Shown: positions 11,401-49,910 of the stretch, piece after piece
How positions within the stretch are numbered: position 1 is the first letter of the stretch
Layout: every line of letters starts with the position of its first letter
Source of the DNA: an uncultured Armatimonadia bacterium
GTDB lineage: Bacteria; Armatimonadota; Zipacnadia; CAVVLO01
NCBI GenBank assembly: GCA_963749155.1
Contig: CAVVLO010000002.1
Coordinates: 288,001-352,000 of the forward strand
Direction: 5' to 3'
DNA: 64,000 nt
Position numbers and translations under genes: made by a program
The notes under the pieces: model-generated
Seen by the model: the letters and a program-made list of their open reading frames with translations, nothing else
What the model was told of the DNA's origin: nothing
Database searches by the model: none

Positions 11401-11942
11401 TCCTGTATCACCAGGCTGGCCGGCTGGAAGACGCTTCTCAGGCCCTTAAGTCGGGCGCGTGGGAGAACAGTCAGGTGCTAATCAGCTATGAGAACGGCCT
11501 CGAAGATCGCGTTAACTGCAACCCGGAGCAGGTTTGGGAGGTCGAACTTGGAGGCAGGCCTTATAGCCTGGCGCCGGATTCCTGGGCGGCTGTGCAGGGC
11601 GACGGATTCGAGACTTGTTGCACGGTAGAGGAGGGGCACAGGGTTGGCTGGCTGGTGGCGCCCGAGTATCGTTTCTACTGGTCTGAGGGTGTCCTGCGTG
11701 ATTTTGGCGAAGTCGAGACGGACGGCGGGGTAGTATTTCGTCTGCAGCCGGACAGAAGTGAGGAGCTGATTGTCATCAGGCCTTTCAGCAGCCTGAAGCT
11801 AGGCGGCCAGGTAGTAGTGACCGAAGCGCTGGGTGAGCAGAGAGAAGCACTAGGGCCGGTAGCGACTCAGCAGGATGGAGATAGAGTGCTGGTGACACCG
11901 GTTGCAGGCGCTGTGTCGTACCTCCTGAAAGAGCAGGATTAG
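8466..11942 (+). CDS. large secreted multidomain protein with N-terminal CBM-like jelly roll and C-terminal glycosidase-like TIM barrel (frameshifts at ~9165, ~9365, ~11170)
   Basis: Signal peptide (AYA-E); ORFs 8466-9179, 9235-9507 (part), 9410-11326 and 11178-11942 abut in shifted frames to give one ~1150 aa protein. Trp-rich motifs WVWGNNW, YENFTDY, YRDCHTA, VSEG. Confidence 0.6.
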
Positions 11943-11954
11943 GAGCGAGCCGAT

Positions 11955-20342: not shown

Positions 20343-20429
20343 TTGGCCTCCTCGCCGGCAGGGAGAACGAGCCGGTGGGTGTATTCTAGAACGCCCTTAG
20401 TCTTTTTCGCCTTACAGGAGGAATTACCT

Positions 20430-23055
20430 ATGTCCGGAAAACTTTCGCTTGCAGGAGTCTGGGGCCTGACCTGGGCCGAAGGCTCGCCTTTTATCAACTC
20501 CGGTTATTATGCGACCCCGCGTTTTGAGTGCGGCAAGCTGCTGGAAGCTGAAGTGCCAGCGCCCGTCCACAAGGTCTTAGAGCGTCACGGCCTGCTCGAA
20601 GATGCAAACTTTGGCTTGAATAGTCTGCGCGCGCGCTGGGTCGAAGAGATGTTCTGGGTTTACCGGCGTACTTTCGAGGCTCCCGCGGAGGCTGCAAGCC
20701 AGCCGGCGTCGCTCTGTTTCGGCCGGCTGGAATTCGAGGCGGATGTCTGGCTGAACGGTGAGCTTGTTGGCCATCACGAGAACGCCCACCGGCCCGCCGA
20801 GTTCGACGTTACAGGCAAAGTGAAGGCCGGGGAGAACCTGATTGTGGTGCGAGTTTCAACCGGGATGCATTCAGTTGCCGACAAGTCAGCTCTCGAATAC
20901 GGCACCGATGACATCTCTCGCCTGACGAAACGCCATTGGCATCGGCATCCGCAGTATCAGCATGGCTGGGACTGGAATGCCCGCCTGGTAAATGTGGGCA
21001 TCCTCGGCGAGGTGGCGCTCGAGTGGGGCGCTGCGCCCAGACTGCGCGAAGTGTCCGTCTACGCCCAGCCAAACGCTGACTATTCCAAGGCGACCTTCCA
21101 TGCACGGGCCAGCCTGATGAACTCCGATGCGGAAGCCAAGAAAGTCACTATGAAGGCGCGCCTGGTGGAGACAGGGCAAGAAGTTTCTCTCGACATTGAA
21201 GCCACGCCTGGCGAGTCGCGCCACGAGCTGAAGCTCGAGCTCTCTTCGCCGAAGCTGTGGTGGCCAATCGGGCACGGAGAGCAGGCGCTTTATACCGTCG
21301 AGGTGTCGGCTGAGGCCGCAGGTGAAGTCCAGCAAGTGGCCCGCCGGACGGGCGTGCGGAAGATCGATGTGGATCAGTCGGCCCATCCAGTCGAGGGGCA
21401 ATACTTCACCCTCAAGGTGAACGACCGGCCCATCTTCTGCAAGGGCGGCAACTGGGTCCCGCCCGATATGCTTTATACGTCCGTCGAACCGGAGCGCTAC
21501 CAGCGGCTGGTCGACCTCGCGGTAGAAGCCAACTTCACGATGCTGCGCGTCTGGGGCGGCGGGCTCTTCCTCGATGAGGGCGTCTGCAGTGCCTGCGATG
21601 AGGCGGGCCTGCTGATCTGGCATGACCTGCTGTTCGCCTGCAGCAAGTATCCGGGTGACGATCCTGCCTTTGTCCTCGAAGTCCGCCGCGAGGTTACGCA
21701 CAACCTGCGCGAGCTCGCTCACCACCCTTCAATGGCAGTCTGGTGCGGCAATAACGAGATCGAGTGGGGCGACTGGGGCTGGGGCTACGATAACTGGAAG
21801 TCCACCCATCCCCACTATGCGATGTTCCACCGCGACTTGCCCGCTATCGCTCAAGACGAAGCACCGCATGTGTTTTACTGGAGAAGCTCGCCTTATTCGC
21901 CGAATTTCGAATATCCCAACGACCCCACCGTGGGCGACCAGCACCCCTGGACTGTAACGCTCCAGACGCCTGGTGGTTCAGAGTGGTGGGATTATCGCAA
22001 GTTTGTGGATCGCTTCCCCAATGAGGGCGGCGTGCTGGGCAGTTCGCCCATCACCACGTTGAAGCAGTTCCTCCCCGAGGCCGAGCGCAGTCTCTACAGT
22101 CCGAGCTGGGTGCATCACGACAACCCGCTACGCGACGATGGACAGCGTCCCAGGCGCGCCGGGCCATGCTTATCAGACGGTCACCCTGTGGACTGGCCGC
22201 GATCCACGCGATATGACAATCGAGGATTATGCTTTCACCAGCGGGCTCTTGCAGGCCGACGGGCTGCGCGAGTATATCTCAAACTTCCGCAGGCGGATGT
22301 TCAGCAGCGCCTCGGCCATCTTCTGGATGTACAATGACTCCTGGCCCGTGACCAACGGGTGGACGATCGTGGACTATTACCTGAGGAAGAAGCTCGCTTT
22401 CCATCCTGTGCAGAAGGCTTTCCAGCCTGTGACTGTGGTGGTAGCCGAGGAGAGCGAGGGCGTGAAGGTCTTCGGTGTGAATGATTCGCCAGAGGACTGG
22501 TTCGGCGACCTGCAGTATGGTTTCTTCACGCTGGAGGGGGAGCTACTGATCCAGGGAGAGCTAAACGCGAAGCTCCCGGCCCTCTCCTCGACCGTACTTG
22601 GCGAACTGTCTCGCGCCGAGTGGGAGGAGCTAGGCACATCTCGTAGCGGGGCCTTCGCCGTGCTGATGGACGAGGGGCGCATCGTGGCGCAGCACCGGCT
22701 GTTCGTCGAGCGGTTCAAAGACCTGGAGTTCTCCGAGCCGCAGGTTACGGTCATCTACGCCGGCGGCGTTGCGACCTTCAGCTCGCCGCATTTCGTCTGG
22801 GGCGTGTGCCTCGATGACACGGGCGAGCTTGCGGTGCCTGATAACTGCTTCGATCTGCTGCCAGGCATCCCGTATACACTCGACTGGCCCGCGGAGCTCG
22901 GTGAGCCGACCATCGTGGCAATCGGGAGCCGAGATGCGGTGAAGCTGGCACTAGTGCGACCAACTGGTGGGGGTGCGGGGGCACTGCCCCCGCGCCTTCC
23001 CATAACTCGCGTTCTTAGTCAGTCCTGGATACTGGCGGCCGCCTCATTGAGATAG
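20430..23055 (+). CDS. glycoside hydrolase family 2, beta-mannosidase-like (frameshift at ~22130; 3' end uncertain)
   Basis: AGGAG RBS; HGWDW, LWWPIGHGEQALY, FCKGGNWVP, MLRVWGGG, HHPSMAVWCGNNE, GDQH, NEGG; continuation IFWMYNDSWP...WTIVDYY. Confidence 0.9.
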
Positions 23056-25553
23056 CCTCTCAGCAGTTTCAGCTCTCGTTTCTGCGTCTCTGTGGCAAAG
23101 CCATCGCACCCGTAGTCCGACCAGAGGATGCCTGGCGCGCCACCTTCTTCATAAGTGGCCTTCCACCAGGGATAAGCCGCCATCAGGCAGTGGATCATCA
23201 TCCCCTTGCGCGGCTCCTCCAGGTTATAAACAGACTGATAATCTCGGCCATAATAATCATTCAAGACGATGTCACGCATATGATCGAACTGAGGCAGGAA
23301 AAGTGGCACCACACCCGCCTTGACCATCTCGCGCATCCCCTGGCGCCACTCGGTCTCGGTATAGGGCAGCGTCGTATAGTCATTATAGAAGTGCAGCACG
23401 TCGGCCTGCTTCACTACCTCGAAGACCATCGCATTGCGGCGCTGCGAGTAGTACACATGCCGCCAGTGAGAGTTGTCTCCATCGGGTTTGCCTTCGCAGA
23501 CCAGGTTGGCGCCTTCGGTCCGGACAGACAGCTCGCCCCCTGGGAGGAACTGCTGGATCAGGCTGTTGGCCTTTCGCAGGATATCCATCCGGAGTTCGGT
23601 GCGGAAGACATCCCAGTCCTCGGTAGCTTTGCTCCAGTCGTGGAAGGGGTGCTCAGGCTTGTTGTAGACTGGCCCGTGATGCAGCACCTCGAAGTTTTCA
23701 TCACCCTGATTGGCCTCCGGATCAATCGCCTCGAAGCTCTCGTAATCGCTGCCCCAGGCCTGATTAACGGCTTTCAACGTGCCATACTTTACTTGAAGCC
23801 AGTCCCGGAAGCGTTCCTTGGCCAGGGGCCCGAGGTAGTAGCGCACATTGATGTCATCGCGCATCCAGCCCCAGGTGTCTTCCATCTCGATGGGCACCCG
23901 ACCGGTCTTCGAGCGGAACCAGAGATCGCCCCACCTGGCCCAGTTGTATTCTGTCCAGGCGGCGATTACCTCGGGCACAGCCGGATCGCCCATATCCACC
24001 GATGGAGCGCCTGCATTATAGCCAGGCTCGGTCAGTGAAGGCTTAACCTGGCGCCCCAGCACCGGCTCGGCATTGGTGTACCAGGAAAGGCCCGAGGGTG
24101 GATAGACGCTCCACCCCAGCACCTTCATATCAAGCTTGCGCATCAGGACATCGTAGAAATACTTGTAGCAGGCGCTGTGCAACTCGACGCCCTTGCGACC
24201 TGTCACTTCCGGCACCCACCAGTTGCCCGCAGTGCTGGAGATAAGGTTCACGCCCAGCGCCTTCAGCTCGGCGAGTTCCCGGTACAGATGGTCTTCGGGA
24301 TACGGCCCAAGCTGGATGCCGGTGCGCATCCCGGGCATTGCCATGGCCAGGATTGCCGGCTCCTCGAAGCCGTCTTCGCGCCTGACTACCATCTCGTTGT
24401 TCGGATTTGGCTTGATGCGGAGCGTCTCATCAGAGACCTTCACCGGTATCTTGGCAACCATGAGCTTCTTGGGATTCTCGGTCATCAGCTTCAACACAAC
24501 GCGCTTTGTCCAGGGTGCGACCTGAAGATAGAGAGTGGCTTCGATGGTCTGCTTGCGGGTTGCTGGCTGGTGGATGACGAAACTGGTCATAAACTCTTCG
24601 AACCGCTCGAGGAAGCCCGGCCACTGGGCGTTCTGGGGTGTCTGAAGGAAGGTTAGCTCGGGCTCCTCCTGACCGCCCTGGGGGGTCACGGTCAGCGGCA
24701 TGGTCAGTTTGGTGAAGTCCACACCGGCCCAGATATTCACCCACCAGTTGAACTCCTTGTAGTAGCGGCAGGCCATCCGGAAATCTATCTGATACCGCCC
24801 AGGCTTAAGCCCCCGTACATACTCGGCGCCGAGTCTCGGGCAGTAGAAATTAACCCATTGCTCGACTGACTCGCCCGGGTACAGATACTCGAGTTGCCGC
24901 TCGAAGGCGTTGAGCGAGTTGGCGACCCACTCGACTTCGCCGGCCTCGCTATACCGAGTAAGGGTCGGGATGGCCATACTCCCGCCAAACCCGTCAGGAT
25001 CGAGGATCGTGTCTCCCGTGTTGGTTATACGGAACTTGAACCACAGCGCGTTGGCTGGCTGGATAACTGCCGACCGGACGAAGGGCTGCCTGTCAAAAGG
25101 CGGGAAGGGGCTGGTCGGCCCCTCGGGATCGGGGCCAAGTGGCACGTATTTCGACTCGTTATAGTCCGCGCCCAGACTGCCCAGATACTCGATCGAGACG
25201 CTGGCCGTGCCCGGAAGCGCCAGGTCAAAGAACGCTGTCTCTTTGGCTTTGAGGTCATGTTCGAAAGCTACCGCTTCGACCGCGAGCCGGCTTGTCCCAG
25301 CGGGTCTGGTCAACTTGTAGTGGACAGGTATGACATCATAAGCTCGCGCAAGCTCTGGCAAGGTGTACTCCAGAGTGGCTTCATCCAGCTTCAAGACACC
25401 GGTTTGCACACTCGCCTGTTCATATCGAACAAGCTGGCCAGACTTGCGAGCCGCATCAGACAGTGCAGTGTAGCTGACCTGAGGTTGTGAGGTTTGGGAC
25501 AGTGCCGGTCGTAATGCCAGAAGGAGCAAACTCGCGATTAGCAGACCACGCAT
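23019..25553 (-). CDS. secreted protein with a GH42-like (beta-galactosidase-type) domain
   Basis: Signal peptide (ALS-Q); FRDWLQVKYGTLKAVNQAWGSDYESFEAI and DWDVFR are typical of GH42-related folds. Confidence 0.55.
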   Translation of the reverse strand: MRGLLIASLLLLALRPALSQTSQPQVSYTALSDAARKSGQLVRYEQASVQTGVLKLDEATLEYTLPELARAYDVIPVHYKLTRPAGTSRLAVEAVAFEHDLKAKETAFFDLALPGTASVSIEYLGSLGADYNESKYVPLGPDPEGPTSPFPPFDRQPFVRSAVIQPANALWFKFRITNTGDTILDPDGFGGSMAIPTLTRYSEAGEVEWVANSLNAFERQLEYLYPGESVEQWVNFYCPRLGAEYVRGLKPGRYQIDFRMACRYYKEFNWWVNIWAGVDFTKLTMPLTVTPQGGQEEPELTFLQTPQNAQWPGFLERFEEFMTSFVIHQPATRKQTIEATLYLQVAPWTKRVVLKLMTENPKKLMVAKIPVKVSDETLRIKPNPNNEMVVRREDGFEEPAILAMAMPGMRTGIQLGPYPEDHLYRELAELKALGVNLISSTAGNWWVPEVTGRKGVELHSACYKYFYDVLMRKLDMKVLGWSVYPPSGLSWYTNAEPVLGRQVKPSLTEPGYNAGAPSVDMGDPAVPEVIAAWTEYNWARWGDLWFRSKTGRVPIEMEDTWGWMRDDINVRYYLGPLAKERFRDWLQVKYGTLKAVNQAWGSDYESFEAIDPEANQGDENFEVLHHGPVYNKPEHPFHDWSKATEDWDVFRTELRMDILRKANSLIQQFLPGGELSVRTEGANLVCEGKPDGDNSHWRHVYYSQRRNAMVFEVVKQADVLHFYNDYTTLPYTETEWRQGMREMVKAGVVPLFLPQFDHMRDIVLNDYYGRDYQSVYNLEEPRKGMMIHCLMAAYPWWKATYEEGGAPGILWSDYGCDGFATETQKRELKLLRGYLNEAAASIQD

Positions 25554-25748
25554 CTCATCCGCCTCCAAAGCGCGTCAGTCAGGCGCTGGCCCTTAGCTTC
25601 TCTGGCCTCTCGGATTTCCCTGCGTAAAAGCCAGGCGCGCTTGGGGCTGGTAAGAGCTTTGATTCCGGGCTTCCGGCATGGAGCGTAGCTCGGGGTACTT
25701 CCAGAAGGTGCGATATTGAGCGCCATATAAAATATATCCTAAGGGGGA

Positions 25749-25776
25749 TTGCCAATATACAATTTTCACTTATAAT
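25749..25776 (+). promoter_or_regulatory. promoter of DUF1559 paralogue 1
   Basis: TTGCCA-16 nt-TATAAT; same layout as the paralogue 2 promoter. Confidence 0.65.
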
Positions 25777-25855
25777 GAATTTAGGATGTCACAGGATGAA
25801 TCACCGCCATATGCTCTACAGAGCAAACACTATGTGCCCGGGGGGTTCCAAAACT

Positions 25856-26575
25856 GTGAAGAAGCAAGGTTTCACCCTCATCGAGTTGCTGGTCGTAATA
25901 GCCATCATTGCGATTCTGGCAGCTATCCTGTTCCCAGTCTTTGCGCGCGCCAGGGAGAAAGCCAGGCAATCCGCCTGCCTTTCCAACTGCAAGCAGCTAG
26001 GCCTTGCGGTAATGCAATATGTCCAGGATTATGACGGCTCTTTCCCTGACCATGCCTCACTAGGGGTCCACGTCTATACGGAGGGGTATCTGGGTGGTGT
26101 CCACATAAATGACTACGCCATCCGTATCTGGACCGATCCCACACAAACTACCGTAGGCGGTATGGCCAAGGTCCTGGGGCCGTATGTCAAGAACCAGCAG
26201 ATGTTCGTCTGTCCCTCCGATCCGAAGGTGGATCGCTGGATCAGTGGTAGAGAACGCGGGTCCTACTATATGCGCCATGCCATAGACGCTTATGCCTTCA
26301 GTGTGCGTATGCCCGCAAACGAATCAGTTGTCAAGCGGCCATCGCAATTGATGCTTAGCGTCGAGGAAGCCTGGCACTGGGGCGGTGCCGAGCCCTGGTG
26401 CTGGACTACCAACAACATTGGCTCAAACAAGGATATCAACGCCGTGTTCTTTGATGGCCATGCCAAAGTATCCAAAACCTACTGGGATGCCGGCAACCAG
26501 CACATCCCTTACTATGATACCAACTGGTTCTACAACAACCATGGCTGGTATTTCCTGAACGATCCTTACGATTAA
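25856..26575 (+). CDS. prepilin-type N-methylation / DUF1559 protein, paralogue 1
   Basis: GTG start after a GGGGG RBS; G^[40 protein letters not shown]. Confidence 0.9.
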
Positions 26576-26612
26576 TCCTAACCTGTATCGCATGCAATAC
26601 CTGTGACGTCGC

Positions 26613-26647
26613 AGCCCTCGGCTCCTCGGAGTCGAGGGCTCTTCTTT
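26613..26647 (+). terminator. intrinsic terminator of paralogue 1
   Basis: AGCCCTCGGCTCC..GGAGTCGAGGGCT + CTTCTTT. Confidence 0.7.
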
Positions 26648-26718
26648 ACTGCCACAACCCTCGTCCCCAGGGCCTTTGTTCGATATGAACATAAGGTAAA
26701 AAAAATCCTAAGAGGGTC

Positions 26719-26746
26719 TTGTCAATATTTCGTATTTCGTTATAAT
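26719..26746 (+). promoter_or_regulatory. promoter of DUF1559 paralogue 2
   Basis: TTGTCA-16 nt-TATAAT, preceded by ATCCTAAG as in paralogue 1. Confidence 0.65.
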
Positions 26747-26840
26747 ACATATAGGACATTGCGGAGCTTCACTCGCTCGGAGTCTCACCGCCTTATGCTC
26801 AATGGAGCAATCACAATAAGTTCGGGGGGGTCCCACCACT

Positions 26841-27557
26841 GTGAAGAAGCAAGGTTTTACCCTTATCGAGCTGCTGGTTGTAATCGCCATCATCGCGATT
26901 CTGGCAGCTATCCTGTTCCCGGTCTTCGCGCGCGCGCGTGAGAAGGCTCGTCAGTCAGCGTGTCTTTCCAACTGCAAGCAGCTTGGTCTTGCCGTAATGC
27001 AGTATGTCCAGGACTATGATGGTTGCTACCCAGACTCAAGCGCCGCTGGCCTGCTCTACTCCAACGGCTACCAGGGCGCAGCCCACATCAACGACTGGGC
27101 TATCCGCATCTGGTCAGATGGTACTCAGACCACCGCAGCCGGTATGGCCAGGACTCTTGGGCCCTACATCAAGAACCAGCAGATGTTCGTCTGCCCGTCC
27201 GATCCAAAGGTCGACCGCTGGATCGCTGGCAACCAGCGTGGCTCCTACTATATGCGCCACGCCAACGATGGCTACGCCTTCTCTGTGGGTATGCCCATCG
27301 CCGAGTCAGTCGTAAAGCGTCCCTCCCAGTTGATTATGGCCCTGGAAGAGGCCTGGCACTGGGGCGGCGCCGAACCCTGGTTCTGGACCTGGACTAACAC
27401 TGGCCCATCCAAGGACGCCAATGGCGTGTTCTTCGATGGCCACGCCAAAGTCACCAAGTGCCCGTTCACCAGCGGCCTGGGCGTGCAGCCCTATGACGCC
27501 AACTGGTTCTACAATGGCCATCACTGGTACTTCCTCAACGATCCATGGGATATGTAG
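26841..27557 (+). CDS. prepilin-type N-methylation / DUF1559 protein, paralogue 2
   Basis: Same pilin N-terminus; [16 protein letters not shown]. Confidence 0.9.
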
Positions 27558-27596
27558 TTTCGTAGTGTGAACCGCCAAGCCTCACCGCAACGTCCT

Positions 27597-27631
27597 CGCC
27601 CTCGGCTCTCAGGAGCCGAGGGTGTTTTTTT
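27597..27631 (+). terminator. intrinsic terminator of paralogue 2
   Basis: CGCCCTCGGCTC-TCAG-GAGCCGAGGGTG + T7. Confidence 0.85.
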
Positions 27632-27854
27632 GCCTGCCTGCGCCTGACACAGCAAGCCAGGTCAGCTCTCCCCCTCGGCAGCGTATTTTACATCGCAGTT
27701 GTGAAAATATATATGAAAGTTATATGAAAATCCGGGTTTTGGCCCAAAACCGACTTACAATAGCAAATGGGGACGTTACCCAGGCTGCGCTTATATTGTG
27801 AAGTCCAGATTCAGGCTCTGTAGAGCCAACCTATTATGCAGGAGGTTTCAGGTT

Positions 27855-28574
27855 ATGAAGAGGCATGGTTTTACTCTCATCGAGCTGCTGGTTGTTATCG
27901 CCATCATTGCGATTCTGGCAGCCATCCTGTTCCCTGTTTTCGCACGGGCTCGTGAAAAGGCCAGGCAGTCCGCCTGTCTTTCCAACTGCAAGCAACTGGG
28001 ACTGGCAGTAATGCAATATATCCAGGACTACGATGGCTGCTATCCCGACGCCTCGAGCGTAGGCTTCTTGTACAGCGGAGGCTACGTTGGCGGACCTTTC
28101 ATAGAGAACTACGCCGTCCGCATCTGGTCCGACGCCACTCAGACTGTTTCGGCTGGCATGGGCAAGACGCTTGGGCCATACATCAAGAACCAGCAGATGT
28201 TCCTGTGCCCCTCTGACCCGAAGGTAGATCGGTGGATCGCCGGCAACCAGCGTGGTTCCTACTATATGCGCCATGCAATCGACGCCTATGCTTTCACCTA
28301 TCAGTACCCAGTTAACGAAGCTGTCATCAAGCGACCGGCTCAATTGATGATTGCTGTTGAAGAAGCCTGGCATTGGGGCGGTGCTGAACCCTGGTGCTGG
28401 ACGACCAATAATGTCGGGCCTGACAAGGACATCAATGCTGTGTTCTTCGATGGCCATGCCAAGGTAAGCAAGACTTACTGGACCACGACAGGCACAGCTG
28501 TACCCTACTACGACACCAACTGGTTCTACAATGGCGACAACTGGAACTTCCTGAACGACCCCTGGGATATCTAG
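27855..28574 (+). CDS. prepilin-type N-methylation / DUF1559 protein, paralogue 3
   Basis: AGGAGG RBS; MKRHG^[23 protein letters not shown]. Confidence 0.9.
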
Positions 28575-28610
28575 TTAGCCACTAGTCAAAGAGCGTGGCC
28601 AGGACGTCCT

Positions 28611-28643
28611 CACCCCCGGCTCTCCGGAGTCGGGGGTGGTTTT
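28611..28643 (+). terminator. intrinsic terminator of paralogue 3
   Basis: CACCCCCGGCTC-TCCG-GAGTCGGGGGTG + GTTTT. Confidence 0.75.
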
Positions 28644-28861
28644 CCTCGAATTATTTTGGTGAATCCGAGCGAATTTCTCAATAAGCAAGTAGGAACTCCC
28701 ATATTAGGGTATAATTAAACATCCGAACGGCAGGCAGTCAGGACGGGCAGCGCCGTCAAAAGCCACACGAAGGCTGGCACTTTTTGATGTTATGCAAGGC
28801 GCTGACTTCCTGGGTAGCCTGCCGCGGTTATTGTATACCTGATTACTAGGGAGGACCCATC

Positions 28862-29581
28862 TTGTCACGCAAGCAAGGCTTCACACTTATCGAGTTGCTC
28901 GTCGTTATCGCCATCATTGCGATTCTGGCAGCAATCCTTTTCCCGGTCTTCGCGCGCGCTCGCGAGAAGGCCCGCCAGTCCGCTTGCCTTTCCAACTGCA
29001 AGCAGCTTGGTCTTGCCGTAATGCAGTATGTGCAGGATTACGACGGGATGTACCCCGACTCAAGCAGCACCGGGTTGAACTACGCCAGTGGTTATCTTGG
29101 CGGAACCCACATCAACGATTATGCCATCCGCATTTGGTCGGATGACAGCCAGACCAACGTGGCCGGTATGGCCAAGACCCTCGGGCCCTACGTCAAAAAC
29201 CAGCAGATGTTCGTCTGCCCTTCGGACCCGAAAGTAGATCGCTGGATCGGCGGCAAGCAGCGTGGTTCTTACTATATGCGTCACGCGCTCGATGCTTACG
29301 CCTTCAGCTTCCAGCACTCACTGAACGAAGCCGCCCTGAAGCGCCCCTCCCAGCTGATCCTGGCTGGCGAGGAAGCCTGGCACTGGGGTGGCAGTTCTCC
29401 GTGGTTCTGGGACACAGCCGATGCTGGCTCGCCCAAGGACTTCAACGGGCTGTATATGGATGGTCATGCCAAAGTCAGCAAGCAGCCTTACATCACCCCA
29501 CTGGGCACTGCCAGCTACGACTTCAACTGGGTATTCCAGGGTCACCAGTGGCAGTATGAGTGGGACATCTACGACATGTAA
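28862..29581 (+). CDS. prepilin-type N-methylation / DUF1559 protein, paralogue 4
   Basis: GGGAGG RBS, TTG start; same N-terminus; [16 protein letters not shown]. Confidence 0.9.
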
Positions 29582-29607
29582 GTTGGCAAGCCAGCCAGCC
29601 TTCAATC

Positions 29608-29640
29608 AGAAACCCCCGGCCTTGGTCGGGGGTTTTCTCT
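29608..29640 (+). terminator. intrinsic terminator of paralogue 4
   Basis: GAAACCCCCGGCC..GGTCGGGGGTTTTC. Confidence 0.8.
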
Positions 29641-29837
29641 TGGATGAACAGACCCAAAATTCCAGAATTTTGCCTCTTGTGCAGGAAAAGGCCAAAAAGG
29701 GTACAATAATACTGGAGAGAGGGAGATGGCTTCCTTACAGATCAGTGGGTGCCCGCTGGATTTGTGTCATCTAGAAAGCTGTCTTGGGGAGTTCATATCT
29801 CGCCTCTACCTAATCGATTACTGGGGGTAATCAATTA

Positions 29838-30566
29838 ATGCGCACCAGGAAGCAAGGTTTCACCCTTATTGAGCTGCTTGTCGTTATCGCTATCATTGCG
29901 ATCTTGGCAGCCATCCTGTTCCCGGTCTTCGCGCGCGCTCGCGAGAAGGCCCGTCAGTCCGCCTGCTTGTCCAACTGCAAGCAGCTGGGCTTGCCGTTAT
30001 GCAGTACGTCCAGGATTATGACGGCTGCTATCCCGACGCCTCGAGCGTGGGCTACTTGTACAGCGGTGGCTATATCGGCGGCCCCTTCATCACCGAGTAC
30101 AGCGTCCGCATCTGGGCCGACGCCACACAGACCACACCGGCTGGTATGGCCAAGGTTCTTGGGCCCTATGTAAAGAACCAGCAGATCTTCGTCTGCCCTT
30201 CCGATCCCAAGGTCGAGCGTTGGATCCCGGGCAACCATCAGAGGTTCCTATTACATGCGTCACGCCATCGACGGTTATGCCTTCTCGATTCGGTATGCCA
30301 GTTGCCGAGTCCGTAATCAAGCGCCCTTCGCAGCTCGTGATTTCGCTTGAGGAAGCCTGGCACTGGGGCGGCGCCGAGCCCTGGCTCTGGAGCGGCAACA
30401 ACATCGGCCCGAAGGACTGTAATGCTTGCTACTTCGATGGTCACGCCAAAGTCATGAAGTTCCCCTTCTCGGGTAGCTCGGGCGTAACCAACTACGACGC
30501 CAACTGGTTCCTGCAGCGTACCATGGTTGGGACTTCAACGCCGATCCGACCGACGACCCGTTCTAG
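29838..30566 (+). CDS. prepilin-type N-methylation / DUF1559 protein, paralogue 5 (about 4 frameshifts; sequencing error or pseudogene)
   Basis: Pieces in ORFs 29838, 29999 and 30220 align with the paralogues; the final frame reads [17 protein letters not shown](30564-30566). Confidence 0.8.
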
Positions 30567-30592
30567 CCACTCTGAATTACAGCGGGCATAAG

Positions 30593-30621
30593 AAAGCCCC
30601 CGGCTTCGGCCGGGGGCTTTT
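30593..30621. terminator. bidirectional intrinsic terminator
   Basis: AAAGCCCCCGGC-TTCG-GCCGGGGGCTTTT between convergent genes. Confidence 0.85.
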
Positions 30622-30640: not shown

Positions 30641-32101
30641 CTAGCTGCGCCTGAGGCGCACCGCCAGATCGTGCCGAAACTCTGGTAGCTCGAGACTCAG
30701 CTTCCCATCGGAGACCAGCACAAGCTCCGGCGAATAAACTCCAGTGGTCGGCGAAAAGCAGGCCACACGCCATTTGCCTGCGGCAAGAGCGAGTTCCACA
30801 CCCGTCCGGATAGCCTCCCCGCAGCCTGGCTCTTCCTGTTCTCGTTCATCGGCCAGATACAGGGCGACTTCTTCATCCGGCGCGCCAAAGGCGACAGGCA
30901 GCAGCGGCGTCGGGCAGTACGCGATTATCTCCGGCAGCGGCTTGCACTTCGCAAGGGGCAGGGAGTGCACAAATTGAGAAAGGTATCCGAACCAGCTCCG
31001 GATGGTTTTTTGAGAATCCGGCGTGCCGGTTTCGCGCCAGGGGTGGATGGAGAAGTCGATATAATCGTAGTGCGCGGCTGAAAGCAGGGTCACCCAGGCG
31101 CGCTTGCGGTGGATAGTCCACCCGACCGGGTCCATGAACCTGCTGGCGACATTGTCCTCGTCCAGGTTGAGAGGCTTGCCCGCCTTCCAGGTCGCCAGGC
31201 AATAATCGCGCACTGCGCGCAGTTTAAGTTCACCCGACATAAAGGTGCCCATATCCCAGGAGGCGCCCTGGTAGGTCGTGTTGGGCAGCGGGTGCATATT
31301 TACGACATCCAGTGGGAACTCACCGAAAGAGAGGGTCGAGGGCTGCTCCCAGGGCGTGTAAGTGAAGGCCTCCTGGCCAAAGATGAGATGCCTGTTTGGC
31401 AGGTCTGCTTCAGTTTCACAGATAGCCTGGGCGACCGCTTTCAGCCACTCGTTGGTCTCAGCCGGGGTGGGATGCTCAGGCCCGCCCAGCCCCCCGCCCG
31501 GTTCGTTGCAGAGCTCGAAGACCACATTGTCGTAAGCGTTGAGTTCGGCTACTGCCTTTCGCACATGGGCCAGTTGAACAGCGACGCGTTGCTCATCACG
31601 CAAGGTGTTGTATTCCCACCAGGGGATATCTTTCAGCTCGCTCAGGTTGTTGGCCGCGTGAAGGGGATTTAGCCCCCACACCTCGGGCGCATAGGTGTTG
31701 CTGAGCAGCACAACCTCTACGATGATGCCGTATTCATTGGCAAGTGACACGAAGCTGTGAAGGCGCTCGAAGAACTCCGGGTTCCACTTGTCGAGGTCAT
31801 ACCTCGGCAGTCCATCAGCGGCCCGACCAGGCCCCGTGCGCGGGAAAGGACTTATGTAATCGGTGGACTCGGGCTTGCAGGTCGAATAAGGGTTGACGGC
31901 ACTCTGCAGTTCGCGGAAGAGCAGGAAGAGCCGCGTCAAGGTCATCCCCTTCTCCGAAGCATCTGCCAGATACTTGCAGTAATCAAAGGGCCGATTCATC
32001 ACAGCGCCGTAATGCTCGGTTGCGGTCAGCAGCATCAAGGGCTTGCCTCGGAACTCGAACAGTTTCGGATTGTCCGGGTGGATCCTGATCGGTTGCGCCA
32101 T
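30641..32101 (-). CDS. cytoplasmic GH5-like (cellulase-family fold) glycoside hydrolase
   Basis: HPDNPKLFEFRGKP, DLDKWNPEFFERL, VVFELCNEP, VVNMH, NLDED; no signal peptide. Confidence 0.65.
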   Translation of the reverse strand: MAQPIRIHPDNPKLFEFRGKPLMLLTATEHYGAVMNRPFDYCKYLADASEKGMTLTRLFLLFRELQSAVNPYSTCKPESTDYISPFPRTGPGRAADGLPRYDLDKWNPEFFERLHSFVSLANEYGIIVEVVLLSNTYAPEVWGLNPLHAANNLSELKDIPWWEYNTLRDEQRVAVQLAHVRKAVAELNAYDNVVFELCNEPGGGLGGPEHPTPAETNEWLKAVAQAICETEADLPNRHLIFGQEAFTYTPWEQPSTLSFGEFPLDVVNMHPLPNTTYQGASWDMGTFMSGELKLRAVRDYCLATWKAGKPLNLDEDNVASRFMDPVGWTIHRKRAWVTLLSAAHYDYIDFSIHPWRETGTPDSQKTIRSWFGYLSQFVHSLPLAKCKPLPEIIAYCPTPLLPVAFGAPDEEVALYLADEREQEEPGCGEAIRTGVELALAAGKWRVACFSPTTGVYSPELVLVSDGKLSLELPEFRHDLAVRLRRS

Positions 32102-32110
32102 CTTCTTCTC

Positions 32111-33817
32111 CTATCTGGTAGTCAAGGTATGATGCCCGCGCTCAAGCACTGTCACTTCGGTTGGTACGAGATATCGCTGAATAAAGGTTACTGGGTCGGC
32201 GGCATACAGCCGCTGCATCTCGACGACGCGGCCTTCCCCGCGCTGGTTAGCAACATCACGCGCGAGGAGGTCGGCAAGCTCGGCGGCCAGATCCTCGCGC
32301 CAGGGCTTGCCAGCAGCCAGGTCCTCGCGCAGCAACTGGGCAACATTGGTCTCTCTCAGATGCAAGGCATAGCTCACGGCAACGCGCCGGAAGCGGTCCA
32401 GATGGTCCACAAGCTGTGCGAAGCTCTCTCGATCGACTTCTTCAGGCGCCGAAGTCGCGAGTGCATCAGCCAAAGGAAGCGCCTGCTCGAGAGCGCTGGC
32501 GCACGCTTCGCACCGCAGTTGAACGTCCTCCAACATAAAAGGATGGGGCTGCTGGTCGGTGGTCATCATGAAGTGGCTGTACCGCGTAGAACGCCAGGAA
32601 GGCGTCTCGACCATCTGGCCGCGCACCGTGGCGCCGCTCCAGCCATGGTCAGTTGAGGCGACACCGACCTCGCGCGCAAACCAGGAGGCATCCCAGGGAT
32701 AGAGGCGTATGGCTTCGGTTGTCGTCTCTATCAGAGCCAGCACCCAGCCCTGCGCCTCGCCAAAGCGCTCGGTGATGGCGTTCAGCAGTTGATCAGTGGT
32801 CCAGTCAGGATGAGCGAGTCGCGTGGAGAGGGCATCCAGATTAAGATCAGGCGTATCAGTCGCCGCGCCAAAATACTCTTTCAAGCCCACGACACCCGGG
32901 ACGCTACGGATGGCCTGGACTTCCTCGTCTACCAGCCGTGGACAGGGGATGGAGAGCGGTTCCAGCTCCTCGGTCATCTGGGTGAAGAAGGCTTCTACCA
33001 CAACGGGCATCCCGAGTTTGGCGCCCTGCCAGGCCGTGTTGCGTAGCCAGACATCCACTGGCCTCGCAACCTGAACCTCGGCGATATTGCTGTGCAGCAT
33101 CAGTCCGAAACCTTTTGTCGGCAGGTGCGGCAGGCAGGCGTAGATTTGCCCAGCCGAAAGCTCCCAGGGCTCCCACCACAGCAGATGGTTCCCCTCGCGC
33201 CCCTCACCCCAGACCTGCTGCAGCATGGAGAGAAATCCTGGCAGTCGCTTGTGTAGAGGGATGCCACGTGACCACTTGCTGCTCCCGAATTCGTTAGCCT
33301 GCCAGGCGTCCTGATCATAGGTGTAGACCAGCAGATCATCTACCTCGGAGAACTCCTCACGGAAGCGCGCGAGCAAGCGCGTCTCATAATCAACGATCTC
33401 CGGCCGCAGCACATCATACCAGGGCTCATCGGTCTCGAGTTGGCCGCGCCCCTCGGCATCGAGCCAGGCGCGATCTTCTTCGCCGGTCAAAGGATTACGC
33501 CACATAAAGGGCGAACCAAAGTGAAAGAAGGTGCGCAGTCCCGCCGCCTTTGCGAGTTCGAAACGATAGAGCAACTCGGCGCGGCGCTCTGCCACACGAG
33601 GAGGTTCTTGTTCCTCTGGCAGGCTGACCACATCGCGCAGGTTAAGGGCCTCATCATAAGGCCGGCAAAGCCAGGCGATATTAAGCTGCACGGCGTTGAA
33701 GCCCAGCTCTACCAGACGCTGGACGCCAGCCTCTGTCCACTCGGGCCTCACGCGCGGGTTGCCGTATAAGGCAATTTTCAGTTGGAGCGGCCCTTCAACC
33801 GAGCAGAACAAACTCAT
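32111..33817 (-). CDS. hypothetical protein, possibly a TIM-barrel carbohydrate-active enzyme
   Basis: GGAGG RBS before ATG 33817 (MSLFCSV); ELGFNAVQLNIAW, YTYDQDAW, WWEPWEL. The upstream extension of the ORF overlaps the divergent gene and is spurious. Confidence 0.55.
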   Translation of the reverse strand: MSLFCSVEGPLQLKIALYGNPRVRPEWTEAGVQRLVELGFNAVQLNIAWLCRPYDEALNLRDVVSLPEEQEPPRVAERRAELLYRFELAKAAGLRTFFHFGSPFMWRNPLTGEEDRAWLDAEGRGQLETDEPWYDVLRPEIVDYETRLLARFREEFSEVDDLLVYTYDQDAWQANEFGSSKWSRGIPLHKRLPGFLSMLQQVWGEGREGNHLLWWEPWELSAGQIYACLPHLPTKGFGLMLHSNIAEVQVARPVDVWLRNTAWQGAKLGMPVVVEAFFTQMTEELEPLSIPCPRLVDEEVQAIRSVPGVVGLKEYFGAATDTPDLNLDALSTRLAHPDWTTDQLLNAITERFGEAQGWVLALIETTTEAIRLYPWDASWFAREVGVASTDHGWSGATVRGQMVETPSWRSTRYSHFMMTTDQQPHPFMLEDVQLRCEACASALEQALPLADALATSAPEEVDRESFAQLVDHLDRFRRVAVSYALHLRETNVAQLLREDLAAGKPWREDLAAELADLLARDVANQRGEGRVVEMQRLYAADPVTFIQRYLVPTEVTVLERGHHTLTTR

Positions 33818-33952
33818 ATTTATGCCTCCAAAACTGTGTGCTGGCGATTTCGCCCAGGAAGAGGGTTCTCCTTCCCGTTGACAGCGACCTTCCCCTCGTG
33901 CAATATGCCCGTGCCCGTACAAGAAGGCAAGCCCTAAGGAGGGACTCTCGTA

Positions 33953-35074
33953 ATGAACTGCCTCGAACGCTTCCTTGCCGTGATGGAATATGAACCTGTA
34001 GACCATTGCCCCAACCATGAACTTGGCGCCTGGCCTCAGACTGTAGCGCGTTGGACCAAAGAGGGGATGCCCCCTGGCACTTACACCTTCAACTGGTTCG
34101 TAGCCGATGAGGCCCTTGGGCTGGATCCACGTGAATTCATTCCGGTCAACTACAGTATGGTGCCACCCTTCGACTTCGAGCTGATCGAGAAGACGGAACG
34201 CTACGAGATCTATCGTGACGGGATTGGCGTCGTCCACAAAGCGCTAATCGACGGCTCAGTGGGCGGCGGCAGGATGTGCATGGATCAGTATCTTGACTTC
34301 CCGGTCAAGAATCTTGAGGACTTCCGGGCTGTGAAGAAACGTTATATAGCAGGCATCCCGGAGCGTTATCCAGCCAACCTGGCAGAGGAACTCATCCCCC
34401 GGTGGAAGCAGCGCGATTATCCGCTGCAGCTTGGCTACAACTGCTCTGCCACCGGTTTCTACTGGCGCGCGCGCGAATGGATGGGTACCGAGGAGCTATC
34501 TCTGGCCTGGTACGACCAGCCGGAGCTGATGCACGAGATGATGGAGTTCTTTGCGGATTTCACCATCGAGAACAGCCGGCCAGTGCTGGAGCAGATCAAC
34601 GTCGAGACTTTCACCCTCAACGAGGACCTGGCGATGAAAGGCGGCTCGCTGCTTTCGCCGGCTACCTACAGAGAGTTCATCTTCCCGCATCTCAAGAGAT
34701 TGATTGAGTTCCTCAAGTCGCACGGAGTACGTTATGTTGTGCTTGATTCTGACGGCTATTCGGTGCCGCTGATTGACCAGTTTATGGATGCCGGCGTGGA
34801 TGTCCACTGGCCGCTGGAGCGGGCTTCGGATATGGATCCGGCGATGCTCCGCGCCAAGTTCGGCAAGACCTTGCGCCTTTGGGGCGGCGTGGACAAACGC
34901 GAGTTGGCCAAGGACCGTGCGGCAATCGACGCGCATCTGAAGTCGCTCCAACCGCTGGTTGAAGAAGGCGGCTTCATCCCGCACGTGGACCACACGGTGG
35001 ACCCGGAGATAAGCTACGACAACTTCCAATACTATATCGAACAGAAGCACAAGCTGCTCAGGTGCGAGCTGTAG
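33953..35074 (+). CDS. uroporphyrinogen decarboxylase (UroD/MtaA-CmuA) family protein
   Basis: ERFLAVM, WMGTEEL..AWYDQPELMHEM, EDLAMKGGSLLSP, DSDG, LWGGVDK, GGFIPHVDH. Confidence 0.8.
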   Translation: MNCLERFLAVMEYEPVDHCPNHELGAWPQTVARWTKEGMPPGTYTFNWFVADEALGLDPREFIPVNYSMVPPFDFELIEKTERYEIYRDGIGVVHKALIDGSVGGGRMCMDQYLDFPVKNLEDFRAVKKRYIAGIPERYPANLAEELIPRWKQRDYPLQLGYNCSATGFYWRAREWMGTEELSLAWYDQPELMHEMMEFFADFTIENSRPVLEQINVETFTLNEDLAMKGGSLLSPATYREFIFPHLKRLIEFLKSHGVRYVVLDSDGYSVPLIDQFMDAGVDVHWPLERASDMDPAMLRAKFGKTLRLWGGVDKRELAKDRAAIDAHLKSLQPLVEEGGFIPHVDHTVDPEISYDNFQYYIEQKHKLLRCEL

Positions 35075-38150: not shown

Positions 38151-39890
38151 CTACTCACTTACGCTGCGCTTGATGGCAAGCAGCTCTTTCATTACAGTGT
38201 AGAGGTCGTCCACGCCTTGCGTGCCGAAGGCATCGTGCAGCCGCTTATATAACGCGTAGAGCTTGTCGTAGACGGCAACACTGCCCGGCACAGGCTCGAA
38301 GACGTGTTCTTTAAGGCCGCCCATCTTGGCCTGAGCCTCTATGATATCCGTGTAATAGCCAGCAGCGACTGCGCCGAACATCGCCGAGCCCAGCGCGCAA
38401 GTCTGGCCCGACTTCGAGACCTTAATCGGCCTGCCTGTGATATCCGCGTAGACTTGCATTATCAGCGGGTTCTTCTCCGCGAGCCCGCCACACGCGACGA
38501 TCTGCTCGACCTTGACGCCATACTCCTCGAAGCGCTCGATGATGACGCGCGCCCCGTAAGCGGTCGCCTCGACGAGAGCGAGGAAGAGCTCCTCAGGCTT
38601 CGTCCCGAGCGTCAGCCCGACAACAAGCCCCGTGAGATTGGGGTCCACCAGGACGGTGCGGTTGCCGTTGAGCCAGTCCAACGCCAGCAGGCCGCTCTCG
38701 CCCGCCTTCAGCTTGCTTGCGCCCTGGGTCATCACGGCGTAGAAAAGGTCTTTGGCCTCCTCCATCAACTCCGGCACTTGCCCTGCAAGGCTGGCACCGA
38801 CCGCGGTACGCGGAAGGAGATTCTCCAAAGGCCATCTCATCTGGTCGCGCCACCAGGCAAAGATGTCGCCAACCGCCGACTGGCCCGCCTCAAGGCCTTC
38901 CATACCAGGCACAACGCTGCCATCTACCTGACCGCAGATGCCTTCGACTCGCTCGGTAAGGTCGGGCGCGACCATTACATCACAGGTGGAAGTACCCATT
39001 ATCTTGACCAGCGTGCCTGGGGCGATGGTTGCCCCAACTCCGCCAAAATGAGCATCGAAGGCCCCGCCTGCGACAGCGATGCCTTCCTGAAGGCCCAACC
39101 GTCCGGCCCACTCCTTTGACAGCCCACCGATCTTCACATCCGCGGTGTAGGTATCGTTATAAAGCTTCGCTCGCAGGCCTTTGAGGCGGGGCGACAGTGC
39201 CACGAGGAACTCTTCCGAGGGAAGCCCGTCCCATTCAGCATTCCACATCGCCTTGTGGCCGGCCGCGCACCGGCTGCGCTTGAGCCTGGCGGGATCAGTC
39301 TCCCCCACCAGCAGCGCGGGCATCCAGTCACAGTGCTCAACGAAGCTGGCAGCAGCCTCGAAGACCTCTGGGTCGACCCTGGAAAGCACCAGGATCTTGC
39401 TGAAGTACCACTCGGAGGAGTAGATGCCACCGGAGTACTTCGTAAAGTCCGGATCCCACTTGTGGGCCAGCTCGTTGATCTGACCTGCCTCGGCATGGCT
39501 GGTATGGTCTTTCCAAAGCCATACCATCGCATTGGGATTGTCTTTGAAACGTGGATCAAAGGAGAGTGGCATCCCATCGGCGCCGACAGGCATCGGCGAA
39601 CTGCCCGTCGTGTCTATACCGATCCCAATGATGGCCTTCGGCGAGAAGCCCGGCACGCCGGCTGCATCAGCCAGAGCCCCTTTCACAGAGGCCTCGAGCC
39701 CCTCGATGTAGTCCTGGGGATTCTGCCGCGCGAAATGAGGGTCGCGCTCGTCGAGGATTACGCCGTCCTTACCGCTCGGGAAGTTGAATACGCTGGTGCC
39801 AACCTCTTCACCAGTCTCGACATCCACAATCAGGGCGCGCACCGAGTTGGTACCGTAATCCAGGCCCAGGGCGAACTTGCGCTCAGCCAT
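38151..39890 (-). CDS. araB: L-ribulokinase
   Basis: GLDYGTNSVRA, IDTTGSS, LWKDHT, YSSEW, RSRCAAGHK, FDAH, LEAGQSAVGD, LDWLNGNRT. Confidence 0.93.
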   Translation of the reverse strand: MAERKFALGLDYGTNSVRALIVDVETGEEVGTSVFNFPSGKDGVILDERDPHFARQNPQDYIEGLEASVKGALADAAGVPGFSPKAIIGIGIDTTGSSPMPVGADGMPLSFDPRFKDNPNAMVWLWKDHTSHAEAGQINELAHKWDPDFTKYSGGIYSSEWYFSKILVLSRVDPEVFEAAASFVEHCDWMPALLVGETDPARLKRSRCAAGHKAMWNAEWDGLPSEEFLVALSPRLKGLRAKLYNDTYTADVKIGGLSKEWAGRLGLQEGIAVAGGAFDAHFGGVGATIAPGTLVKIMGTSTCDVMVAPDLTERVEGICGQVDGSVVPGMEGLEAGQSAVGDIFAWWRDQMRWPLENLLPRTAVGASLAGQVPELMEEAKDLFYAVMTQGASKLKAGESGLLALDWLNGNRTVLVDPNLTGLVVGLTLGTKPEELFLALVEATAYGARVIIERFEEYGVKVEQIVACGGLAEKNPLIMQVYADITGRPIKVSKSGQTCALGSAMFGAVAAGYYTDIIEAQAKMGGLKEHVFEPVPGSVAVYDKLYALYKRLHDAFGTQGVDDLYTVMKELLAIKRSVSE

Positions 39891-39947
39891 ATCTGCCTCC
39901 TGCTTGCTACCCGCCTGGCAGGCGGGGGGGTATTGTCTCAGCCTTCA

Positions 39948-40592
39948 CTACTGCTGGCCGTATTTTTCCATATACTGCTTATGCGCGCGAGTTACTTCTT
40001 CAGCCGGAATCTCATCCGGCTGACCGAGCTGCAACGCCAGATGCACCGTCTTGGCGGTATCCTCAATCATCACGGCCGCTTTGAAGGCTGCCACAACCGT
40101 TGGGCCCACTGCGAAAACTCCGTGATTCTTCATCAGAAGCACTGGACTGGTGCCAATCTTGGCAACGATCTCCTGACCGATCTCCTCGCCGCCTATCCTG
40201 GCATAGGCTGAAACCGGAATCGGTCCGCCAAACTCGTCCGCCATCGCGGTCAGATAGACAGGGATAGGCTTCCCGAGCGCCGCGAAGGCTGTCGCATAAT
40301 TGGAATGGGTGTGGATAACGCTGTTTACCTGCGACATATGACGGTATACATAGAGGTGCGTTGCTGTATCTACGGAGGCCTTATATGGACCTTCTACCAG
40401 GTTGCCCTCCATATCGACAACCGCCATATCCTCAGGCTGAAGGGCATCGAAATCTACCCCTGAGGGTTTGATTACCACGAGACCGCTCTCGGCGTCGCGT
40501 CCGCTGACATTGCCGCTTGTCATCGTCACGAGCCCTTCTGCGGGCAGCAGCTTGTTGTACTTGCAGACAGTCGCTTTCAATTCTTCAAGCAT
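39948..40592 (-). CDS. araD: L-ribulose-5-phosphate 4-epimerase (class II aldolase family)
   Basis: TSGNVS, IKPSGV, SVDTATH, HTHS, NHGVF; adjacent to araB. Confidence 0.88.
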   Translation of the reverse strand: MLEELKATVCKYNKLLPAEGLVTMTSGNVSGRDAESGLVVIKPSGVDFDALQPEDMAVVDMEGNLVEGPYKASVDTATHLYVYRHMSQVNSVIHTHSNYATAFAALGKPIPVYLTAMADEFGGPIPVSAYARIGGEEIGQEIVAKIGTSPVLLMKNHGVFAVGPTVVAAFKAAVMIEDTAKTVHLALQLGQPDEIPAEEVTRAHKQYMEKYGQQ

Positions 40593-48950: not shown

Positions 48951-49910
48951 CTCTCTGTCTCCTCCTGAGAAAGCATCACTTTTATCGGCGCTATGCCCGG
49001 GCCAGCTTCGGTTGCGGCAGCCCTGCCCAGCGCAATCAGTCGTCCATCGGCGGTCTCTACCCGCACCAGCTGACCGAATTTACCCGGCAAGGGCGACCTG
49101 GTCTGACGGGCGGTTATCGGCTGCCCGTGAGCGAGCACGCCTGCCGTTTCTGGCTCAATCTCCACCACAGGCAAATGAGCAACCAGCGTGCTGGGTGGGA
49201 GTAGCGCTCTGGCCAGTTCGCCAGCCTCCAGCAAGGCCTCGAACTCTTCCAGAGTAAGTGATTCTTCGAGTCTGAAAGGGCCAACTCGAGTGCGCAGAAG
49301 GCCCTTCAGATAACCGCCAACCCCGAGCGCTTCACCCAGCATCCGGGCCAGCGAACGAATATAAGTCCCCTTGCCACAGTCTATATCCGATAAAAAAGTG
49401 GCTTCCTCGCCCGGAAGGAAGCTGAGCTGCCTCAAACAGGAAAACTTCGACATCTTTGACCTTGGGAGTGACTTCCTGACCCGCTCGGACCTTTCGGTAC
49501 AGGGGTTGGCCATCCTGCTTCTGGGCACTGTAGATTGGCGAGGTCATCCTGAGAGGGCCTCGCAGAGCAGGCAAGGCTGCTTCAATATCGTCCAAAGTCA
49601 GGTGGCTGGCCGAGGTCTGGCTTAGCACCTGGCCTTCCTGATCGTCAGTATCAGTGGTGCGTCCAAGCCCAAACTCGGCCCGGTACGATTTGGTATCATC
49701 CTTGAGGAAATCGATGAGTCGGGTGGCAGGGCCGAAGCAGAGCACCAACACCCCTGCGGCGGCCGGATCAAGCGTCCCCGTGTGACCAGTTTTCACTTTG
49801 CCAAGCAACCTGCGGCAATAGGCGACGACATCGTGAGAGGTCATCCCTGCAGGTTTGAGCAGATTGGCTACGGCGCCCCCCGCCGCACGCGCTTGCGCGT
49901 CAGCCCTCAG
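48947..49910 (-). CDS. truB: tRNA pseudouridine(55) synthase (frameshift at ~49430; start approximate)
   Basis: KPAGMTSHDVV, GHTGTLDP, TDTDD, PIYSA in one frame; CGKGTYIRSLA and LLRTRVGPF in the next. Confidence 0.92.

Follow-up and report, generated by a model that had tools for sequence, protein, structure and literature searches.

The DUF1559 gene array

The window analyzed here is a 64,000-nucleotide stretch (G000:C2:288001-352000) from an uncultured Armatimonadia bacterium, whose genome (G000) comprises 4.17 Mb in 7 contigs, with a completeness of 100% and a contamination of 5.87%. Five DUF1559 prepilin genes lie on its plus strand within positions 25730-30621, spaced about 1 kb apart. 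The array goes back to an old duplication, specific to this lineage, that multiplied a single DUF1559 subfamily gene to five copies; these are under purifying selection.

25856..26575, + strand, copy 1, DUF1559 prepilin, 239 aa, GTG start
26841..27557, + strand, copy 2, DUF1559 prepilin, 238 aa, the copy used for the structure model
27855..28574, + strand, copy 3, DUF1559 prepilin, 239 aa
28862..29581, + strand, copy 4, DUF1559 prepilin, 239 aa, first loop at 29078-29119
29838..30566, + strand, copy 5, frameshifted in the assembly, indels at about 29989, 30237, 30292 and about 30520

A longer reading of copy 1 from an ATG at 25775 is unlikely because this codon lies inside a promoter-like site. 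Copies 1 to 4 are intact (238-239 aa), with 72-77% identity to copy 1 in the alignment. The initial annotation had described five genes of about 240 aa that share a pilin helix and conserved blocks. The number and spacing of the genes held, as did the size of copies 1 to 4, but copy 5 has no intact open reading frame (ORF) here. The shared features were confirmed, the helix being nearly invariant and both an 18-residue block and the DGHAK block being invariant across the four intact copies.

Contigs of runs X1 and X12, in the aligned rows listed, lacked the first three of the copy 5 indels, and an intact ortholog of copy 5, P0002, shares 93% identity with it over residues 153-226. Frameshift-split genes were also found elsewhere, namely truB and a glycoside hydrolase family 2 (GH2) gene in the window (48947-49991 and 20343-23055) and GH95, GH106 and GH2 genes in control loci (L086 and L094). 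Since these genes are split as well, pointing to genome-wide assembly indels, assembly error is the likelier cause of the copy 5 frameshifts, and strain-specific decay is less likely.

A quick maximum-likelihood tree built from 110 rows placed the array copies in one clade with P0001 and P0004 (Shimodaira-Hasegawa-like approximate likelihood ratio test [SH-aLRT] 98) and the three copies of another genome, G056, in a separate clade (SH-aLRT 99). The synonymous divergence (dS) of the head domain was at least 1.3. Nonsynonymous divergence (dN) was 0.22-0.33 in the head and 0.015-0.06 in the helix, and the longest identical tract between copies was 44 nucleotides (nt). An arrangement like the pilE/pilS silent cassettes of Neisseria was considered and rejected. 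Such silent copies lack a promoter and the N-terminal helix and share long tracts, whereas all five copies here have the full helix and a downstream hairpin, and the identical tracts are short.

Run X1 contained a near-identical population, represented by contigs of 2.4-3.5 kb at about 99% identity, and also a 1,199-bp contig over copies 4 and 5 with 59 differences. In copy 4 of this related X1 population, 14 of the 24 listed differences fell within 42 bp (5.0 expected), in the first loop at 29078-29119. This clustering suggests loop exchange or selection.

Relatives of the same class often have runs of DUF1559 genes at kilobase spacing (five on G149:C332, for example, and three on G372:C358). 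PF07596 matches number 34 in this genome, several arrays among them. An array of five copies is in itself nothing unusual for the class. Two further arrays in the genome (C1:702-709 kb and C2:1517-1524 kb; L042 and L043) belong to a different, Cys-rich DUF1559-type subfamily and include broken copies. A four-copy array with the canonical H-X9-DG motif (C3:399-404 kb; L040) has a GH99-like gene within it and a beta-helix gene nearby.

Predicted pilin identity and structure

The profile searches proposed in the initial annotation supported a pilin identity, with one exception. PF07963 matched all five copies and TIGR02532 matched copies 1 to 4. PF07596 matched copies 1 to 4 at 34.8-35.7 bits (gathering cutoff, 23.3), the alignments covering only the first 36-112 of the 268 positions in the profile; the 111-aa first ORF of copy 5 gave no PF07596 match. 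TIGR04294 did not match copies 1 to 4 at E ≤ 0.01, and at E ≤ 0.1 it matched 14 other places in the genome, none of them in the array. In the alignment, the class III signal peptide is intact, with a short basic leader ending in Gly, Phe at +1, Glu at +5 and a hydrophobic tract. Both E+5 and the complete assembly helix are kept in the copies.

The model of copy 2 (predicted local distance difference test score, 96) has a type IV pilin fold, with a predicted alpha-1 helix of about 50 residues under an alpha/beta head. In searches with the protein as a whole, structural matches cover residues 2-223 as a single pilin-like head. The predicted fold is that of a pilin with large insertions, which agrees with the earlier description of these proteins as pilin-like.

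Conserved residues and variable segments

The array genes belong to a distinct subfamily of 89 clusters at E < 1e-74, with a gap beyond. Of 400 genomes sampled from Armatimonadota, at least 25 gave a match, mostly one each. The H-X9-DG motif is present in just 11/89 members; EExWH occurs in 87/89 and YxxRH in 89/89. Fifteen positions are invariant in all 89 (copy 2 numbering): G101, Y109, P119, D121, Y136, R139, H140, P161, E169, E170, H173, D199, H201, N221 and D237. Another ten (D65, Y77, R89, R126, W127, W172, W182, N194, D219 and W222) are at least 94% conserved. H173 may replace the H-X9-DG histidine in space, given that a strand ends at E169 and the position of the canonical histidine comes before the next strand.

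For the comparison among the five copies, P0002 stood in for copy 5. Variation was found in segments 66-100, 142-158, 177-193, 205-217 and 218-238, and was low in 101-141 (8 of 41 columns) and 159-176 (5 of 18 columns). The initial annotation had placed aromatic residues in the variable loops. The opposite was found: F/W/Y/H made up 0.235 of the columns without variation among the five copies, compared with 0.158 of the variable ones (0.108 in the proteome), and the C-terminal tail, 218-238, was the only variable aromatic segment. This distribution makes one shared site likelier than five glycan-specific pockets. Moreover, the candidate binding residues are invariant over 89 clusters with very different neighbors, which argues for one ligand class and not for a repertoire matched to adjacent hydrolases.

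We tentatively favor, with considerable doubt, a reading in which the array encodes predicted type IV pilins. In this reading, PilD probably cleaves them, they are probably assembled into a retractile pilus, and they probably hold one class of carbohydrate at an invariant site that all copies share, with outer loops that differ between copies. R139, H140, E169, E170, H173, D199, H201, N221 and D237 would form a single ligand-binding or metal-assisted sugar site, where H173 takes the place of the H-X9-DG histidine that is missing.

The same His/Glu/Asp-rich invariant set would also suit metal binding. The proteins could then be inner-membrane-anchored or short pseudopilus subunits acting as periplasmic solute-binding proteins for a noncarbohydrate ligand, such as a metal or cofactor. 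The family is described as solute binding in the available text of two papers (PMC2754498 and PMC4807772), DUF1559 proteins of Tuwongella appear in membrane fractions according to the portion available of PMC8567305, and the genome has just 3 SBP_bac_1 matches. This explanation is nevertheless improbable: the predicted fold is that of a pilin, E+5 is retained together with the whole assembly helix, no transporter gene consistently adjoined the orthologs in the neighbor scan of 20 loci, and no Rfam element was found in the window.

Promoters, terminators and transcripts

The initial annotation had assigned each gene its own promoter and a related terminator. The sites found around the copies are as follows:

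25749..25776, + strand, sigma-70-type promoter-like site of copy 1, 11/12 matches
26613..26640, + strand, terminator-like hairpin of copy 1, found by scan
26719..26746, + strand, sigma-70-type promoter-like site of copy 2, 11/12 matches, upstream element as in copy 1
27597..27624, + strand, terminator-like hairpin of copy 2, found by scan
27756..27761, + strand, -10-like hexamer of copy 3, read by eye
28610..28639, + strand, terminator-like hairpin of copy 3, found by scan
28710..28715, + strand, -10-like hexamer of copy 4, read by eye
29610..29636, + strand, terminator-like hairpin of copy 4, read by eye
29702..29707, + strand, -10-like hexamer of copy 5, read by eye
30594..30619, + strand, terminator-like hairpin of copy 5, found by scan, core 30602-30618

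The terminator half of the claim was borne out, as a hairpin follows every copy (copy 4 by eye, the others by scan), and the window has 17 terminator-like sites against 4.3 ± 1.9 in shuffled sequences. The promoter half holds for two genes. Sigma-70-type sites with 11 of 12 matches, in register and with a common upstream element, precede copies 1 and 2 only; copies 3 to 5 have a -10 hexamer and no good -35 element (these hexamers are not in the scan listing). The number of promoter-like sites in the window (5 against 3.4 ± 2.0 in shuffles) was not above chance. The promoter-like site of copy 1 is bracketed by a 7-bp inverted repeat with arms at about 25736 and at 25781-25787; the left arm recurs before copy 2. 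The repeat at 25736-25787 is unique in the genome and is a possible operator.

Transcript evidence for the array came from sediment libraries. Contigs from the RNA libraries of three studies matched copies 1 and 2 with as much as 100% identity, and sequence like that of copy 5 was covered less closely; these are contig-level data, by which genes cannot be ranked by expression. Two contigs start 18 nt past the -10 boxes of copies 1 and 2 (25794 and 26764), and contigs of three studies end at 27579-27591, ahead of the hairpin at 27597. These positions hint only weakly at transcripts of single genes, as contigs do not reveal where an RNA ends. Near-consensus sigma-70 promoters were found at 8/22 orthologs, compared with 15/166. 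Their frequency would fit an abundant product better than a tightly induced member of a polysaccharide utilization locus (PUL).

Sugar-related neighborhood

The genes surrounding the array include the following:

20343..23055, + strand, GH2 mannosidase-like gene, split in two ORFs (Pfam)
23019..25568, - strand, 849-aa protein of secreted type, weak GH42-like match, divergent neighbor (Pfam)
30641..32101, - strand, DUF6298/GH5-like protein, convergent neighbor (Pfam)
38151..40592, - strand, araB and araD, confirmed by NCBIfam profiles, context only

Against roughly ten flanking glycosidase-like genes proposed initially, Pfam supported seven genes of carbohydrate type in the window, several of them by weak matches and one by a LamG lectin-like domain, and 32111-34237 is a weak ESM lead for a GH TIM barrel (0.87). 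A total of about ten is reached only if orphan ORFs are counted. Large ORFs without a confident Pfam or NCBIfam family lie at 9410-14026, which may be one or two split genes, 32111-34237, 35176-38094 and 61565-63958. The proposed araBD flank is real, but it lies on the right side only and 7.5 kb off.

The association was examined with a scoring rule for sugar-linked genes, in a strict and a lenient version, that was fixed before the neighbor scans were seen. In the ortholog test (20 loci against control regions in the same genomes), 23/113 neighbors were sugar linked by the strict rule, compared with 8/98 in controls (about 2.5-fold; P = 0.018), and 26 compared with 12 by the lenient rule (P = 0.049); both P values are overstated because five genera were sampled more than once. 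In the in-genome test (11 other DUF1559 loci against 14 round-number control loci), sugar-linked neighbors numbered 18/69 and 15/83 (P = 0.24). At least one carbohydrate gene was present at 7/11 of these other DUF1559 loci and at 8/14 of the controls.

Besides this overstatement, several results weigh against a carbohydrate-gripping pilin. DUF1559 genes had been expected near carbohydrate-active enzymes (CAZymes) more often than by chance, and no significant enrichment of this kind was seen: CAZymes proper numbered 13/113 near orthologs against 6/98 in controls (P = 0.23) and 8/69 near the other DUF1559 loci against 13/83 (P = 0.49), and a noncircular permutation in this genome gave 5 observed against 5.1 expected (P = 0.57). 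By the strict rule, 8/20 ortholog loci had no sugar-linked nearest neighbor, and a DUF1559 gene lay within 1.5 kb at just 2/26 GH42-like loci, including this one. At 233 residues, the mature subunit exceeds the listed full-length major pilins of solved structure (at most 208 aa). Finally, the available part of the Tuwongella study, in which DUF1559 proteins were found in membrane fractions, gives no proof of filament assembly (PMC8567305).

The initial annotation had proposed a PUL that works without SusD: the copies would bind or sense different glycan variants, one each, and would serve the adjacent hydrolases, with control specific to the substrate. The window indeed has no SusC or SusD gene, and the whole genome gave 0 matches for PF00593 (the TonB-dependent SusC barrel) and PF07980 (SusD). 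The local cluster of glycosidase-like genes with araBD and the five different upstream regions would also suit such a system, as would some conserved adjacency: a 61% homolog of the GH42-like neighbor adjoins an ortholog in G062, of another class, a 29% homolog of the DUF6298-like neighbor is convergent to an ortholog in G099, and araBD homologs lie about 5-8 kb from an ortholog in G172. Also in favor of a specific link, 5/15 of the other genomes with the GH42-like family hold the DUF1559 subfamily. Predicted pilins, machinery and a modest broad sugar enrichment stand from this proposal; CAZyme enrichment is not supported, and the core of the proteins is invariant across unrelated neighborhoods, with aromatics concentrated in invariant columns. 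No regulator was found among the 46 window ORFs scanned, the neighbors are divergent or convergent to the array and not co-transcribed with it, and six GH42-like loci of other genomes shared no other window hydrolase. A dedicated PUL therefore seems quite unlikely. The link between the array and the neighboring sugar-cleaving genes is loose, and the best reading is a coupling to sugar use in general.

Other features recurred near DUF1559 loci. Many orthologs are followed by a small gene of 80-125 aa (L049:9485-9733, L050:8296-8541, L051:9487-9759, L052:9517-9762, L061:9395-9673 and L045:10466-10774) whose product has either a lipoprotein-like signal or a single hydrophobic stretch near its N terminus. 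The window array has none, and four such genes scanned gave no Pfam match. Directly upstream of one ortholog, a regulator with GntR and LacI-type sugar-binding parts (L054:8251-9429) is followed by an FGGY kinase and an acetylesterase, with a similar layout at L051 and L053. Gfo/Idh/MocA, AP_endonuc_2 and ThuA genes lie near several DUF1559 loci (L032, L034, L036 and L037; post hoc P of about 0.03); such clusters are reminiscent of oxidative glycoside-breakdown pathways.

Pilus machinery in the genome

The display of pilins by this organism, as assumed in the initial annotation, is feasible. The genome has six matches to secretins, one prepilin peptidase (PilD), a platform protein and ATPases of two kinds (two PilB-type, several PilT-type). 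A cluster at C2:887-917 kb contains pilB, pilT, pilC, pilD, pilM and a secretin gene, and a pilin passing PF07596 adjoins pilD. Its gene content makes this cluster the likely assembly system.

A second type IV filament cluster is located at C5:578-590 kb (both clusters, L099-L101). Outside the pilus clusters, three tandem secretin genes followed by a pectate-lyase-like gene (C2:1257430-1262382; L102:5430-10382) are candidate extra pores. The secretins at C1:606542 and C2:887351 have equal length and equal domain coordinates, reflecting either duplication or bin contamination.

No short canonical major pilin was found among the called genes of the C2 pilus cluster. The array proteins might be structural subunits, alternative major pilins in a heteropolymeric type IV pilus, whose invariant residues stabilize the head, possibly via a metal, and whose loops vary the surface against phages or predators; the sugar neighborhood would then be incidental in a glycosidase-rich genome. 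The monocistronic layout with strong promoters, the nearly invariant assembly helix and the cluster of differences in the first loop of copy 4 would fit this role, as would the independent tandem expansions in G056 and elsewhere and the carbohydrate genes at more than half of the round-number control loci. A precedent for a heteropolymeric pilus appears in the available text of PMC10628169. Other results do not fit. Many Arg, His, Glu and Asp residues are strictly kept in insertions outside the pilin core, probably beyond the usual structural need, most genomes with the subfamily have one match, the identical tracts between copies are short, and sugar genes are enriched around orthologs. A purely structural role is possible but rather unlikely.

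Proposed mechanism and relation to known systems

If the array encodes carbohydrate-gripping pilins, PilD would cleave the prepilins and the products would be built into a retractile pilus, in which the copies may be mixed stochastically or replace one another under different promoters. Binding by the pilus would keep the cell on particulate polysaccharide, and retraction would bring the substrate to secreted hydrolases. Loop variation may tune affinity or change the exposed surface.

Large paralog sets that combine N_methyl and PF07596 with CP and DGH motifs are shared by the DUF1559 proteins of Planctomycetota, Verrucomicrobiota and Armatimonadota. According to the available text of the respective papers, DUF1559/PF07596 (SBP_bac_10) paralogs number 91 in Tuwongella (PMC8567305) and 74 in Rhodopirellula (PMC2754498), and Fimbriimonas has 79 PulG-like genes, for which attachment was suggested (PMC4072686). 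The array subfamily differs from canonical DUF1559 proteins in failing TIGR04294, and the array differs from many ortholog loci in having no small partner gene.

Related pilins sharing a filament and pilins binding glycans are each described elsewhere, in the portions available of the sources cited here. Streptococcus sanguinis has two major pilins in one type 4 pilus (PMC10628169), and its PilC binds glycans as a lectin pilin (PMC9934059). PilC is modular, with a grafted lectin module, whereas the structural matches of the copy 2 model appear to span one enlarged pilin head. In Ruminococcus albus and R. flavefaciens, the cellulose-binding pilins are CbpC, GP25 and Pil3, of which Pil3 was cellulose bound and induced by Avicel (PMC3672088). 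These are likewise adjacent pilin genes in polysaccharide degraders, but the proteins are smaller, the genes lie inside a biogenesis cluster and the host is monoderm. The MUL2 type IV-like pilus of Akkermansiaceae, in the Planctomycetota-Verrucomicrobiota-Chlamydiota lineage, was proposed to attach to glycans (PMC13174399); it has a conserved four-gene locus and an archaeal-type pilin, in contrast to the dispersed DUF1559 paralog family.

The SusC/SusD PULs of Bacteroidota place a surface binding protein beside glycosidases and co-regulate them by substrate. The array differs from these in that the genome has no TonB-dependent barrel or SusD match, no regulator was found in the window and synteny is not conserved.

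A broader proposal, which is bold and has a limited chance of being correct, is that DUF1559 proteins are a third nutrient-capture route beside SusD and ATP-binding cassette (ABC) binding proteins. A library of ligand-binding pilins on one retractile type IV pilus would pull polysaccharide to or through secretin pores. Within this library, the subfamily with the substituted histidine would bind sugars, perhaps with the help of a metal; it would have been amplified fivefold and diversified as copies exchanged loops. The genome that carries it has 34 such genes and six secretin matches, and no match to a TonB-dependent transporter. The route of polysaccharide uptake is called unknown for some Planctomycetota in the available text of PMC11131199, and that of PMC11685898 contains no mention of pilins. 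In the literature searched, no account of the array subfamily and no glycan-binding test of a DUF1559 protein was found.

DUF1559 proteins are among the largest unexplained expansions in the glycosidase-rich Planctomycetota, Verrucomicrobiota and Armatimonadota. The locus is a tractable test set: it supplies five naturally occurring versions of a single predicted pilin head, a few invariant residues as candidates for the site, a candidate assembly cluster and transcripts from sediment. If the heads do bind glycans, pilus-displayed capture would be a testable answer to how such bacteria feed without SusC and SusD.

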